Of a stretch of DNA of 64,000 nt, positions 44,766 through 64,000 are shown piece by piece. The number at the start of each line of letters is the position of its first letter. Position 1 is the stretch's first letter. The stretch is from Candidatus Saccharimonadota bacterium (GTDB lineage: Bacteria; Patescibacteriota; Saccharimonadia; Saccharimonadales; Saccharimonadaceae): the NCBI GenBank assembly GCA_017405225.1, contig JAFRAV010000010.1, positions 1,862 to 65,861 on the forward strand, read 5' to 3'. The notes under the pieces are model-generated. The model worked only from the letters and a program-made list of their open reading frames with translations. It was not told the DNA's origin and ran no database searches. The position numbers were made by a program, and so were the translations under genes.

Positions 44766-46670
44766 TTATTTATCTACAACTTCGCCTTCTACTGGCTCAT
44801 CGCCGCCATCAGATTTTTTATCTGATGTATCGTCAGATTTGGCGTTTTTGCCATCTTCTTTTGCGGCTTGCTGATACATTTTAGCGCCAATTGGCATAAT
44901 CTTTTCTGACAACTCACTAGCTGCTTTTTCTAGAGTTTCTTTGTCAGCATCTTTATCATCCAAGACCTTTTTGGCTTCTGCTACAGCATCGTTAATTGTT
45001 TTGGTGTCTTCTTCAGAGATTTTGTCTTTGTACTCTTTTGGCATTTTTTCTGCTTGGTAGATAGCATTTTCTAGATGGTTTTTAGCATCTATGCTCTCAC
45101 GTTTTTTCTTGTCTTCATCTGCATGTGCTTCAGCCTCTTTTTGGGCCTTCTCAATATCTTCTTTACTCATGTTGCCAGAGTTTTGGATGGTGATGGACTG
45201 CTCTTTTCCAGTGCCCTTGTCCTTGGCTGTAACATTAAGAATACCGTTTGCATCAATGTTGAACGTTACCTCAATCTGAGGAATGCCACGTGGTGCTGGT
45301 GCAATGCCATCAAGGATAAAGCGACCAAGCGATTTATTATCAGCGGCAAACTCACGCTCGCCCTGAAGTACGTGGATTTCTACTTGTGGCTGGTTGTCTG
45401 ATGCAGTAGAGAACACCTCAGACTTGCTGGTAGGAATTGTAGTATTGCGGTCAATCAGTGGCGTACGAACACCGCCCATGGTCTCAATACCAAGTGTTAA
45501 TGGAGTGACGTCTAGAAGAAGTACATCCTTAACATCTCCCTGAAGGACACCACCTTGGATGGCGGCGCCTACAGCTACAACTTCATCTGGGTTTACGCCC
45601 TGCATTGGCTCTTTGCCAAAGATGCTTTTGACCTTTTCTACTACTGCTGGCATACGAGTCATGCCACCTACCATTACAACTTCGTCTATGTCAGATGCTT
45701 TCAGTTTGGCATCTTTTAGGGCTTTTTCTACTGGCTCGGCTAGACGGTCAAGTAGAGGAGCTACTAGTTCTTCTAATTTGGCGCGGGTAAGTGTGTGCTC
45801 AAAATGTTTTGGACCTTCTGCATCGGCAGTAAGAAATGGTAGATTAATATCTGTAGAGGTAGCAGAAGATAGCTCTTTCTTGGCTTTTTCTGCCTCGTCT
45901 TTGATACGTTGCATTGCTGCAGCGTCATCACGCACATCAATGCCAGATTCTTTTTTGAACTCATCCAATAGATAGTTGACAATGATATTATCAAAATCTT
46001 CACCGCCCAAATGAGTATCACCATTGGTAGACTTTACCTCAAATACACCATCACCTAATTCTAGGATAGATACATCAAATGTACCACCACCAAGGTCAAA
46101 TACGGCAATTTGCTCATCCTTCTTATTTTCTAGACCATAAGCAAGAGCGGCGGCGGTAGGCTCGTTGATGATACGCTTAACCTCTAGGCCAGCAATTTTG
46201 CCAGCATCCTTGGTGGCCTGGCGCTGTGAATCATCAAAGTAGGCAGGTACAGTAATGATTGCTTCAGTAACTTTTTCTCCTAGGAAAGCCTCAGCATCGG
46301 CTTTGATTTTAGAGAGCACCATAGCAGATATTTCTTCTGGAGTGTAGTTTTTGCCATCCATCTCTACAGCAGCCTGGCTACCTTTTTTGGTAATTTTGTA
46401 TGGCATAATATCTAAGTCGTGCTGGACTTCTTTGTCGTCATATTTACGACCAATTAGACGTTTGATGCCATAAATAGTATTCTTTGGGTTAGTAACGCGT
46501 TGGCGCTGAGCAACTTTACCAACTAGGCGCTCGCCTTTCTTGGTAACGGCTACTACAGATGGCGTGGTGCGATCACCCTCGCTGTTAGTAATAACCTCTG
46601 GCTTGCCAGCTACCATGTAGGCAAAGGCAGAGTTGGTTGTACCTAAGTCAATACCGATGATTTTGCTCAT
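44766..46670 (-). CDS. dnaK: Chaperone DnaK (Hsp70)
   Basis: [43 protein letters not shown]. Confidence 0.98.
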
Positions 46671-46733: not shown

Positions 46734-46744
46734 TTCTTAGCTCT

Positions 46745-46782
46745 ATTGTAGCAAATTAGCACTCTACTGTCAAGAGTGCTAA
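46745..46782 (-). promoter_or_regulatory. dnaK promoter overlapped by a perfect CIRCE
   Basis: TTAGCACTC-N9-GAGTGCTAA at 46756-46782; minus-strand TTGACA (46768-46773), 17 nt, TACAAT (46745-46750). Confidence 0.92.
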
Positions 46783-46807
46783 TACAGGGGTAAAACTAAA
46801 AAACTGG

Positions 46808-48255: not shown

Positions 48256-48897
48256 CTAAATTTTAAGAATTGCAAGAGTCTCTCTAACCTGAAGGGTCGG
48301 AGAGATTTTTGTAGTGGCAAGCCACTCTTCTACCGCTTTGGCCACGCCTGGTAATTGAGGATTGTTATAATCATGTACTATCACGATGCTACCTGGCTGC
48401 AAACGAGGACTAACCAGGTCTAAACTGGTTTTGATAGATTGATATAAATCTCCGTCCAAAAAAGCAAAGGCAATTTTGTCTGGTAAATCATGAGAATTAG
48501 CTCCACTATCTAACTGATCAAAGAATCCTTTGCGAATACGCGGAACTTTTAGTCCGGCTTTCTTGAATCGTTCTACTACCTCTTTTTTTGTCACTAGTAA
48601 TTCTCCGGCTTGGAAACTATCTCCCGCAACCGAAGAATCTTCAGACGTTTTTGGTGGTAAACCTTCAAAGGAATCATAAATCCATAAAAATTGCAGGCTG
48701 CCACCGTTTTTGTTATTTTCTTGCCTGCGTTGTTCAAGAAGTCGTTCCAAAAGTAGGGAAGTGTCTCCACGGTAACAGCCAAACTCGCAAAAATCCCCCT
48801 CGCCAGTACATTGTCTAGCGAGGGAGAGAATTATCTCGGTTTCTTTGTTGGAAACCTGTTGTGGCTCAGAGGCTTTGATGAAATTATTTTTTGACAT
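48256..48897 (-). CDS. TylF/MycF-family O-methyltransferase
   Basis: EFGCYRG, YDSFEGLP, FLDGDLYQS, HDYNN. Confidence 0.88.
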   Translation of the reverse strand: MSKNNFIKASEPQQVSNKETEIILSLARQCTGEGDFCEFGCYRGDTSLLLERLLEQRRQENNKNGGSLQFLWIYDSFEGLPPKTSEDSSVAGDSFQAGELLVTKKEVVERFKKAGLKVPRIRKGFFDQLDSGANSHDLPDKIAFAFLDGDLYQSIKTSLDLVSPRLQPGSIVIVHDYNNPQLPGVAKAVEEWLATTKISPTLQVRETLAILKI

Positions 48898-50137
48898 TAT
48901 TATTGACAGCGGCTTTATCTAGCTCATCTTTAGAAACATTGCCATCTTGGTTCTTATCAAGCAAGATACCTGCACGACGAATCATTTCTTCAAATTCATC
49001 AGTACGAATTACCCAAACTGGCTTACTGCCTTCAGCGGCAATATTAGTGTGGCGTTCTGGCATATCGCTGACGTTCTTCTTTTCGTCAATGGCAAAACCA
49101 AGATAACTAAGTTTTTGTGCTACCATGCGACGGATTTCGTCACTGCGTTCACCAATGGTGGCTGTAAAGACAATAGCGTCTACTCCACCTAATGAGGCTG
49201 CCATTTGACCAATGCAGCTTTGAACACGATAGACAAACATCGCGTGTGCAAAAGTACCTTTTTTATCGCCTTCATCACGAAGACGGATAATCTCGCGCAT
49301 ATCATCACTCTGGCCGGAAACACCTAATAAGCCACATTCTTTATTGAGGTATTTTTCTAGAGAATCATCTGATTCGTATCCAAGCGCTCGCTTAATTGCA
49401 AGGCCAGCCGACACGTCCATAGAGCCGGCGCGAGTAGCCATCATCAAACCTTCCAGTGGAGAATAGCCCATAGTAGTATCTAGTGATTTTCCCTCAAATA
49501 CGGCCGTAATAGAAGAACCAGAGCCCAAGTGGCAGACAATTAGTTTTTCTGGTAGGATATCTTGAGATTTCATATAATTAACGATAGAGCCCATAGACAA
49601 GCCATGGAAACCAAATCGCTTGATGTCGTTTTTATCTGCCAAATCTGTGTCAAACGCATAATATTTCATTAGATCTGGACGATCTGCATGAAACGCAGAA
49701 TCGGAGATAGAAAGAAGCGGAGTGGTCTTAAAAGATTTAGTGAAATGCTCAATTTCCCCAGCAACTACTGGGACATGCAAAGGCGCACGTTTTTTGGATT
49801 TTTCCAAATTCTTCAGATATTCGTCATCTACAATATGATCCTGGGTAAAATATTCGCCAGGAACAGCACCACGTACTAGAATAGCATCTAATGTAGTCAT
49901 TCCGCCAAGGTAACCCTCTTCAGTCAAAATGCGATTCAAATTTGCTACGGTAGATGTTAGCTCCTTAAAATCTTGCTTTAGGACTTTCTTTGTGCCATCA
50001 GCCTTTTTGAGTGTGCAAATGATATCTTTGCCCTCAAACTCAAAATGTAGGCTACAAACTAATTCTTGGCCTTTGTATAATGCGTATTTACGACTAGAAC
50101 TTCCTGGGTTTGTAATCAGGATTAATTTATTTTCCAT
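48884..50137 (-). CDS. ackA: Acetate kinase
   Basis: NPGSSSRKYAL, APLH, DSAFH, FGFHGLS, HLGSGSS, TMGYSPLEGL; ATG with SD. Confidence 0.92.
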   Translation of the reverse strand: MENKLILITNPGSSSRKYALYKGQELVCSLHFEFEGKDIICTLKKADGTKKVLKQDFKELTSTVANLNRILTEEGYLGGMTTLDAILVRGAVPGEYFTQDHIVDDEYLKNLEKSKKRAPLHVPVVAGEIEHFTKSFKTTPLLSISDSAFHADRPDLMKYYAFDTDLADKNDIKRFGFHGLSMGSIVNYMKSQDILPEKLIVCHLGSGSSITAVFEGKSLDTTMGYSPLEGLMMATRAGSMDVSAGLAIKRALGYESDDSLEKYLNKECGLLGVSGQSDDMREIIRLRDEGDKKGTFAHAMFVYRVQSCIGQMAASLGGVDAIVFTATIGERSDEIRRMVAQKLSYLGFAIDEKKNVSDMPERHTNIAAEGSKPVWVIRTDEFEEMIRRAGILLDKNQDGNVSKDELDKAAVNNNVKK

Positions 50138-50176
50138 CAAAAACTCCTTATTTTGTCCTTATTATACCACATTAAC

Positions 50177-50250
50177 ATGTGGTCTTCCCAGCCCAAATAA
50201 TTCTCACTACAGTAATTTTAAGTCATACAGGTTTAGCCTTGTCAAAATTA
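50177..50250 (+). repeat. Repeat R, copy 1
   Basis: ATGTGGTCTTCCCAGCCCAAATAATTCTCACTACAGTAATTTTAAGTCATACAGGTTTAGCCTTGTCAAAATTA. Confidence 0.95.
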
Positions 50251-50259
50251 CTTCCAATT

Positions 50260-50297
50260 CCTTATGAAATGAGATAGCTTCGCCTCATTTCATAAGG
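50260..50297. other. Perfect 14-bp hairpin at the centre of a long palindrome
   Basis: CCTTATGAAATGAG-ATAGCTTCGC-CTCATTTCATAAGG. Confidence 0.9.
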
Positions 50298-50307
50298 TAA
50301 TTGTGCA

Positions 50308-50367
50308 TAATTTTGACTAGGTAAAATCCGCTTTAATGACTTAAAATTACCGTAGCGAGAATATTTG
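50308..50367 (-). repeat. Repeat R, truncated divergent internal copy
   Basis: TAATTTTGA-19 nt-ATGACTTAAAATTACCGTAG-CGAGAATATTTG; the 20-mer core is identical to 50685-50704. Confidence 0.88.
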
Positions 50368-50369
50368 TC

Positions 50370-63012: not shown

Positions 63013-63939
63013 ATGAGCAATCCAGATTTGCAATCAAGGAATCATAAAGAAAAACATAGTTCATACAAAATAACTCGTGTTGCCATGGCTTCAGTGCTGG
63101 TGGCTCTTTTGGCTTTTGCTGGATTTGCTACATTCTCCGTAAATGATATCGCTACCACTGTAGAAGACCACGTTCTTGCAAATGTAAACGGAGTTCCAGA
63201 GGCATGGACAAATTATTCTAAAGAATCTAAACTAGAAACAACTATTTCTTCTAGGATAGTCAACAATAGTTATATAGAATACACATTGGCTATCAAGAAT
63301 AACGACAATAGCCACTCTGCATCACTCACGCATTTATCATCTTATGTATCAAATGGCGATAAAAATGGTTTTATTTCCCTAAACGATGATTCATTAGAGT
63401 ACAGTTATTCTGACACGGAGTCTAAATCTTGGAATAATATGAATATTTTAGAGCCAAGCAACAAAGAAGATGGGTTTAAGCTAGAGAAAGATATTTATCT
63501 AGGTAAAGAGGGAACCACAACTGATACAGTCTACTTTAGGTATATTGTTTCGCCATCAGAAGAAGGCAAAATAAGCGATAAGGTATCTGTTTTGGCAAAG
63601 AGCGATTCTGGAAAAAATGAGGTAGCCACAGCAGAAAATGATATAGAATACAATAAACCAGACGAGGTACGCTTGGCTGCTGAGGCGGTTGTACGCGAAA
63701 ACCCAACTGTAGCAAGACAAGATCCAAATGACGAATCTGGAGAATATGCCAAGCCATTAGGCGTAGAATCCAATCCTAATTCTGGTGTTATATCCACATC
63801 GTCATTAGGCTCTGTATTTTTGTCACCAAATTCGTTTGCTGGGAATATTATTATCATACTAGGGATATTAGCAGTTTTTGTGGTCTGTCTTGCGGTTTAT
63901 CTAGTGGCTAGGAATCGTGGGAAAAAGGCCAAGAAATAA
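63013..63939 (+). CDS. Hypothetical surface protein with N- and C-terminal TMs
   Basis: Two hydrophobic anchors flanking an Ig-like beta-rich region. Confidence 0.65.
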   Translation: MSNPDLQSRNHKEKHSSYKITRVAMASVLVALLAFAGFATFSVNDIATTVEDHVLANVNGVPEAWTNYSKESKLETTISSRIVNNSYIEYTLAIKNNDNSHSASLTHLSSYVSNGDKNGFISLNDDSLEYSYSDTESKSWNNMNILEPSNKEDGFKLEKDIYLGKEGTTTDTVYFRYIVSPSEEGKISDKVSVLAKSDSGKNEVATAENDIEYNKPDEVRLAAEAVVRENPTVARQDPNDESGEYAKPLGVESNPNSGVISTSSLGSVFLSPNSFAGNIIIILGILAVFVVCLAVYLVARNRGKKAKK

Positions 63940-63940
63940 T

Positions 63941-63990
63941 ATGTGGTCTTCCCAGCCCAAATCATTCTCACTACAGTAATTTTAAGTCAT
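63941..63990 (+). repeat. Repeat R, copy 3 (continues past the window edge with different sequence)
   Basis: 49/50 identical to 50177-50226, then diverges (CTTGGTTACA versus ACAGGTTTAG). Confidence 0.93.
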
Positions 63991-64000
63991 CTTGGTTACA

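Follow-up and report, generated by a model that had tools for sequence, protein, structure and literature searches.

Our analysis places the imperfect palindrome at positions 50194-50367 of the window (the whole stretch of 64,000 nucleotides that was analysed) in a family of hairpins that is most likely lineage-specific, long (140-200 nt), resident at gene ends in its genus and greatly amplified in this species. We give an even chance to the reading that the palindrome is a structured extragenic element of the REP/ERIC/Correia kind at gene ends, whose dispersed copies act as portable homology or cruciforms round arrays of cassettes. The copies of the family have one layout in common: a small tip hairpin whose loop is conserved, an asymmetric, bulged core that is conserved as well, and outer and middle stems that pair but are free in sequence. 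Arrays of gene-tail cassettes with DGR-type marks are enclosed by a pair of copies in opposite orientation.

The source genome (G000) comprises 643,622 bp in 46 contigs and is 96% complete. Among named genomes, those nearest to it are Candidatus Saccharibacteria MAGs from ruminant guts, including one labelled Candidatus Nanosyncoccus, and the host genus is probably this gut group of Saccharibacteria, Nanosyncoccus. Saccharibacteria live as obligate epibionts, their genomes measure about 0.6-0.8 Mb, and to our knowledge almost no mobile DNA or regulatory RNA is known from them. In the present genome about 50 long hairpins take up several per cent of the intergenic space, and with the palindrome family a REP/ERIC-like system would be described for the first time from this radiation. 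The family also provides the physical framework for an unusual collection of lectin-tip cassettes, which probably changes the cell surface used in host attachment, and the conserved core and loop of the palindrome offer concrete cis-elements for termination, recombination or DGR targeting.

Fold, core and island of the window palindrome

The first-pass annotation had described an imperfect palindrome of about 174 bp, which is indeed present at 50194-50367 and folds with a z score of about -12 against shuffles. From the outside inwards it consists of outer arms of 27 nt (50200-50226 and 50336-50362, complementarity 93%), middle arms of 28 nt (50232-50259 and 50299-50326, complementarity 75%) and a tip hairpin (50260-50297, plus strand) with a 10-nt loop, ATAGCTTCGC. 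The 14-bp stem of the tip (50260-50273 and 50284-50297) is 100% complementary and is the perfect hairpin that had been noticed before; the inverted boxes reported together with it are both found, GTAATTTT at 50211-50218 and AAAATTAC at 50243-50250. As a single strand, the stretch 50173-50372 has a folding energy of -47.4 kcal/mol (z -11.9) when computed with DNA parameters and of -78.1 kcal/mol (z -12.8) with those for RNA, and none of 200 shuffles folds as well. The 27-nt box occurs four times in the window versus an expectation of zero.

Between the arms lies a bubble that had been taken as asymmetric and as variable from copy to copy. The asymmetry stands; the variability does not, the bubble being the most conserved part of the family in six species, and both core motifs coincide with it. 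On the 5' arm the motif GGTTTAGCCT (50230-50239, plus strand), with the family consensus CTTGGTTTCAGCCT, is retained by every copy in the six species, whereas the stems beside it vary. On the 3' arm the motif AGGTAAAATCCGCTTTA (50319-50335, plus strand), with the consensus AGGTGAAATCCGCTTTTA, is kept across the six species as well. The two consensus motifs pair with two bulges, and the conserved bulged core of the palindrome can be written as GGTTTCAGCCT / AGGTGAAATCC. The loop of the tip recurs in 48 hairpin tips genome-wide; the tip stem differs among type A, type B, G009 and G079 copies, with compensation.

Of 23 copies compared as RNA, 21 fold more stably, by 5-13 kcal/mol and with more G-U pairs, on the strand that runs against the model orientation, which is the bottom strand in the window. 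The common core may account for much of this gain, so the 21 copies do not count as independent observations. A scan for promoter and terminator consensus sequences found nothing within the palindrome, and no T-run follows the end of the whole hairpin. That the better folder is the strand opposite to the upstream gene does not fit a simple read-through terminator. In Rfam only tRNAs pass at the gathering threshold and at E<=1, with no family for the palindrome; we regard the matches to miRNA precursors (E 0.07-0.6) as noise from hairpins.

The palindrome is the left end of an island at 50173-50738, a 566-bp insertion between the start of ackA and the promoter and CIRCE operator of dnaJ, which is flanked by inverted 78-nt R1 arms with a complementarity of 92%. 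The outer (left) arm, R1 (50173-50250, plus strand, 78 nt), starts with TAACATGTGG. The inner arm is a truncated arm of the R2 type (50299-50372, minus strand) and is joined to the adjacent cassette at the common letters CTGG (50369-50372); the same joint between R2 and a cassette is also found at C17:6440, on C36 and at C44:33618. The cassette itself (50373-50627, plus strand) is a start-less frame of 85 codons representing the C-terminal part of a FISUMP/lectin-like domain, and in this copy a TGA stands in place of the Cys codon of other copies. Besides this cassette the island contains no ORF. Further to the right follow a 30-nt remnant (50631-50660, minus strand) of a 155-nt, GC-rich structured element, here called the S element, and the right terminal arm of the island, an inverted copy of R1 (50661-50738, minus strand). 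An R1 arm of the next island is located at 63935-63997 (plus strand), where it ends at the window edge; its first TAA is the stop of a 311-codon ORF (C26:65805).

On the left, the island is adjacent to a 418-codon ORF on the minus strand (48884-50140), which from the look of its translation we take to be the acetate kinase gene ackA. On the right, the CIRCE operator and promoter of dnaJ occupy 50771-50809, where a perfect TTGACA-17-TATAAT overlaps the operator. The spacer between ackA and dnaJ measures 109-180 nt in four related species versus 675 nt here, and joining the flanks without 50173-50738 reduces it to 109 nt; the island is therefore an insertion in this lineage. The window copy of the palindrome lies between two gene starts, not between two gene ends. 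TA is found at both junctions (50173-50174 and 50737-50738), so that a TA target duplication is possible on the basis of this single island, the sole one with both ends assembled; the relatives are too diverged for a base-by-base comparison.

Copies in the genome and in related species

A search of the genome with R1 gives 47 matches at E<=0.01; counted by pattern, the arms number about 50. Nearly all contigs start or end in an outward-pointing R1 and stop about 80 nt further on, in the tip region. Since the contig ends fall in outward R1 arms, it is this repeat that breaks the assembly, and the palindrome repeat explains the poor assembly of these genomes. Four alternative centres follow R1, namely tip type A (as in the window), tip type B, S, and S with a 76-nt insert. 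A typical island has the order R1-centre-R2, one to five direct tandem cassettes, and R2-centre-R1, with R1 pointing toward unique genome; one-ended variants are present on C43 and C45. The inner (R2) arm abuts a cassette in eight of the nine resolved copies, and a solo copy is located at the start of C32. One hybrid copy on C44 combines a left arm of type A with a right arm of type B, and copies therefore exchange at the tip. About ten copies have an extra partial arm unit, GGTCTTCCCAG-N9-AATTCT, as a sub-terminal direct repeat with a stop codon at its start. In its full form the S element (L010, G000:C36, 318-472, minus strand) is 155 nt long and GC-rich, folds at -83.4 kcal/mol (z -10.2) and has no Rfam match; it replaces the tip hairpin between the arms and is also present at the ends of C3, C11, C23, C44, C45 and C46. 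The core of the S element is 76-88% conserved at five places in G009, beside longer gene-tail fragments.

An exact-pattern scan for the R1 core in genome and metagenome contig collections returned no match outside G000, and a plain DNA search of 40 relatives matched in G009 only; a covariance model was needed to reveal the family. Built on a 139-nt core and searched against 120 genomes, the model detected full-length copies in five other species of the genus, G003 (11 copies), G009 (3), G079 (4), G062 and G065. The outer and middle stems of these copies are unrelated in sequence yet complementary, the core is conserved, and the complementarity runs past the model into copy-specific flanks. The cassette-rich genomes G024, G049 and G074 gave no match to the model.

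Covariation is evident among the copies. Many stem positions distinguish type A from type B, with matching changes on the opposite arm, and the G009 copy represents a third state. In a set of 11 sequences, which represent only about three independent lineages, the 47 pairs of the stem are 97.8% paired and 11 of them have changed on both sides. None of 500 column shuffles reaches the observed value, and sliding the partner by 1-3 columns as a control leaves 31-45% paired with at most two compensated pairs. The stems are free but paired round a conserved core and therefore indicate a constraint on a folded RNA, on ssDNA or on a cruciform. Such stems are the opposite of plain transposon ends and point to a constraint on the folded form, although arm-to-arm conversion within a DNA palindrome could mimic part of the compensatory change without any selection. 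The proposal of the first-pass annotation that this is a structured DNA or RNA element thus goes in the right direction, the stem being kept by compensatory changes.

The copies are tied to gene ends. Sixteen of about 62 arm ends in G000 start exactly at the TAA that closes, in frame, an ORF of 80 codons or more, and a further ten are at most 3 nt away from such a TAA; as a background, 2.1% of all TAA in the genome end an ORF of this size. Three of the 16 exact cases are R2 arms on the stop of a cassette. A gene end lies within 60 nt of 35 of the 51 R1 arms. In other species the distance from the stop of the preceding gene (pnp, ndk, lepB or another housekeeping gene) to the copy is 18-38 nt, and these copies are mostly without cassettes and sometimes between convergent genes; the G000 arms are longer and begin on the stop codon itself. 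One G079 copy is situated between lepB and a cassette. Positions common to two species are found after pnp (G000 and G003) and after a gene on C19 (G000 and G009). With arm ends on stops, the simplest unit is therefore gene -> TAA-palindrome-TTA <- gene, and the cassette gene is one of the genes with such a palindrome on its stop.

Cassettes and DGR-type marks

By tblastn, G000 contains 39 copies of the cassette, nearly all of them start-less and open over about 85 codons. They represent the C-terminal part of a FISUMP/lectin-like domain and end in ...LRC. The cassette alone matches no family in Pfam or NCBIfam; TIGR02145 (FISUMP) matches only a distant full-length paralogue on C18 and, weakly, one cassette. 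In the DNA alignment a 5' block of 40 nt is invariant. Hypervariable sites, at about 50463-50615 in the window, are limited to the first and second positions of NNC/NNT codons; each of the four bases is seen at them, with A as the commonest (41%), and the codons in between are invariant including their synonymous sites. Judged from sequence, this pattern is typical of adenine-specific DGR mutagenesis. The hypervariable codons coincide with the AAC/AAT (Asn) codons of a template-like repeat beside the reverse transcriptase (RT) of G048. Among the G000 cassettes there is no template repeat, the best copy having A at 15 of 29 variable sites. The RT profile PF00078 (RVT_1) has no match in the G000 assembly (96% complete), and no intact full-length cassette gene is present there.

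RT is found in 83 of 120 genomes of the genus (69%). An association between RT and the hairpin, suggested by RT in four of the five other hairpin-bearing species, was rejected given this frequency. The cassette-richest genomes, G000 (37 short cassettes) and G079 (>45), are both without RT. G048 possesses a complete DGR-like locus (L061, G048:C3, 468-2881) with a 229-aa ORF, a 394-aa RT and a convergent, Asn-rich template-like repeat; variable-repeat genes in this genome are followed by a hairpin element of about 70-190 nt (L083, 450-1100), the core of which equals the tip of the G003 palindrome.

Within arrays the cassettes are connected by linkers of about 25 nt, with no hairpin between them. 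A recurring short homology, ATCCTGG / GTCTGG, joins cassette to cassette and cassette to inner arm (window 50366-50372; C38:10433-11575). It is present in the cassette gene both inside (…AAATCCTGGTCC…) and in the 3' flank (…TAGCATCCTG…), and homology at both of these places suggests that the arrays may have grown by microhomology-mediated duplication or template switching. At the contig ends C37:7040-7185, C8:1-140 and C27:1-250, longer fragments of this gene, truncated at the 5' side, run off the assembly; they reach back to the CPAGWQLP motif or beyond, and a terminator-like hairpin precedes each of them. In G079 (loci L075-L079) many cassettes are arranged tail-to-tail in inverted pairs of 200-260 nt that are 17-36 nt apart, and here the cassettes themselves form large palindromes.

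Known systems and competing readings

The REP/ERIC/Correia-like reading draws on several known systems. Like REP/REPIN sequences, which are mobilised by RAYT, and like proteobacterial BIMEs, the family consists of dispersed extragenic hairpin units, tens per genome and often between convergent genes (about 50 arms in G000 and 11 copies in G003, all intergenic), with a short conserved motif beside stems that must pair. Unlike REPs (20-40 nt) and REPINs (about 100 nt), the palindrome measures 140-200 nt and has no GTAG head; moreover, its arms start on stops, its copies bracket cassette arrays, and no Y1/RAYT is present in five carriers. Correia elements (CREE/NEMIS, Neisseria) and ERIC/IRU (enterobacteria) are 100-160 bp long and are transcribed into hairpins that affect termination and mRNA stability; Correia elements duplicate TA. 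The family resembles both as a set of imperfect, non-coding palindromes in many copies beside genes, and the 78-nt arms (92% complementary) are terminal inverted repeats without coding capacity as in Correia elements and Tc1-IS630 MITEs. In contrast to Correia and ERIC, conservation is inverted here, with free stems and a conserved internal core, TA is found at one island only, and the host belongs to the CPR phylum.

Partner enzymes were searched for in G000, G003, G009, G079 and G048. The Y1/RAYT transposase (PF01797), which as a control matches in 7 of 14 known genomes, had no match in these five carrier genomes, and the same holds for the IS630-type transposase DDE_3 (PF13358) and the IS110-type recombinase (PF01548, DEDD_Tnp_IS110). 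The sole tyrosine recombinase of G000, found as the one Phage_integrase match, is XerD/XerC-like (256 bits as XerD) and scores 128 bits as integron integrase versus a cut-off of 265. That no transposase or partner was found, with Y1, DDE_3, IS110 and RT absent and the tyrosine recombinase Xer-like, counts against the REP/ERIC-like reading. The earlier comparison with HUH/REP elements is apt as far as REP-like organisation is concerned, whereas membership in that class is not supported, five genomes being without Y1 transposase.

If the REP/ERIC-like reading is right, the palindrome would spread as a non-autonomous unit and would act between convergent genes as a bidirectional 3'-end hairpin, as a terminator or mRNA protector. 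The approximately 50 near-identical, cruciform-prone copies could supply homology or breakage points, and via such points the 3' copy of the cassette gene, together with its own palindrome and cassettes, may have moved to about two dozen loci.

A doubtful alternative sees the palindrome as a DNA signal that serves the cassette system in cis. It would be read by its structure and its bulged core and would be either an enlarged version of the DGR target hairpin/cruciform or a recombination site for cassette insertion or exchange. In the BPP-1 DGR, a 24-bp hairpin/cruciform is located downstream of the variable repeat; its structure matters, its stem sequence is free and its loop is conserved (Guo et al. 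2011, PMC3240598). The present hairpin likewise follows directly after the coding end of a variable repeat, with free stem sequence and conserved loop, so that its position and covariation fit at the last cassettes: the inner arms begin at the stop codon that closes the final cassette of an array, at most 12 nt from the conserved ...LRC end, and eight of nine resolved copies touch a cassette. The order gene-palindrome-cassette is also seen in G079, and in G048, where RT occurs together with a template-like repeat, the variable-repeat genes are followed by a long hairpin with a core equal to the G003 tip; moreover, the bottom strand folds better. Against this, the palindrome is 6-8 times larger than the known DGR hairpin (140-200 nt versus 24 bp), and copies also lie far from any cassette, those of G003, G009, G062 and G065 following housekeeping genes with no cassette near. 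Conversely, cassette-rich G024, G049 and G074 are without a model match, G079 has more than 45 cassettes with only four copies, and cassettes inside arrays adjoin without a hairpin. The G000 assembly contains no RT, and RT in four of the five other carriers is no association, RT being present in 83 of 120 genomes.

It is unlikely that the palindrome is no more than a selfish element, namely a MITE or foldback transposon whose long ends are inverted, and that the islands are composites with a captured gene fragment and without a function for the cell. About 50 copies with inverted terminal arms, the empty site in relatives and the possible TA duplication would suit such an element, as would the sub-terminal direct repeats (GGTCTTCCCAG-N9-AATTCT, about ten copies) and the identical joint between arm and cassette at four loci. 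However, MITE ends are conserved and their interior drifts, whereas here the outer stems differ between species yet pair, and it is the internal core that is kept. Transposases of the tested families are absent from five carrier genomes, two positions are common to different species, and arms abut stop codons exactly, all of which speaks against a MITE.

We consider it quite unlikely that an as yet undescribed system for handling cassettes uses the hairpin as its recognition element. In such a system a structure-specific protein, possibly the lone Xer or another factor, would read the bulged core on the better-folding bottom strand and insert or exchange DGR-diversified cassettes at stop-codon-capped palindromes. 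If true, this would link retroelement hypermutation with dispersed stores of silent cassettes in genomes from which RT has been lost.

Among known systems, integron attC sites resemble the palindrome in several respects, with an imperfect palindrome, conserved boxes, an asymmetric interior, bulged bases, promoter-less cassettes and a bottom strand that folds better. Unlike attC, there is no site per cassette, the hairpins bordering arrays rather than each cassette; the cassettes are gene fragments, and the lone tyrosine recombinase is Xer-like and below the integron-integrase cut-off, so that the attC assignment is not supported by our data. In the vlsE/silent vls inverted repeat of Borrelia and the Sma-Cla repeats of Neisseria pilS, a long palindrome borders silent, start-less surface-protein cassettes. 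The present family also puts a long palindrome at the border of a silent, start-less cassette array, but it occupies about two dozen dispersed islands instead of one locus, has no intact expression gene in the assembly and shows DGR-type marks.

A guide- or retron-type ncRNA (bridge RNA, omega RNA or msr/msd) with the bubble as its programmable segment, as had been suggested in the first-pass annotation, deserves very little credit. The long structured hairpin with its asymmetric internal loop invites the idea, but the bubble is conserved and not copy-specific, and its segments have no match elsewhere in the genome at <=2 mismatches. There is also no IS110-type recombinase that would go with a bridge RNA, no reverse transcriptase in the assembly that would go with a retron msd, and no Rfam family at E<=1. 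That the palindrome is a fold-back artefact unique to this assembly has practically no chance: most copies do lie at contig ends, but these ends are a consequence of the repeat and not its cause, seven complete copies are found inside contigs with unique flanks on both sides or cassettes, and five independent assemblies from other species contain the family too.

Two further observations concern the genes around the window island. The insertion point of the island is 1-2 nt from the extended -10 box of ackA, TGGTATAAT (minus strand; window 50141-50172), on its upstream side. Since the island abuts this box, the former -35 region of ackA, whatever it was, has been replaced, and ackA presumably relies on the extended -10 alone. 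The window contains two CIRCE operators (TTAGCACTC-N9-GAGTGCTAA), at 46735-46783 and at 50771-50819; the former is located upstream of a 634-codon ORF on the minus strand (44766-46670), which is probably dnaK.
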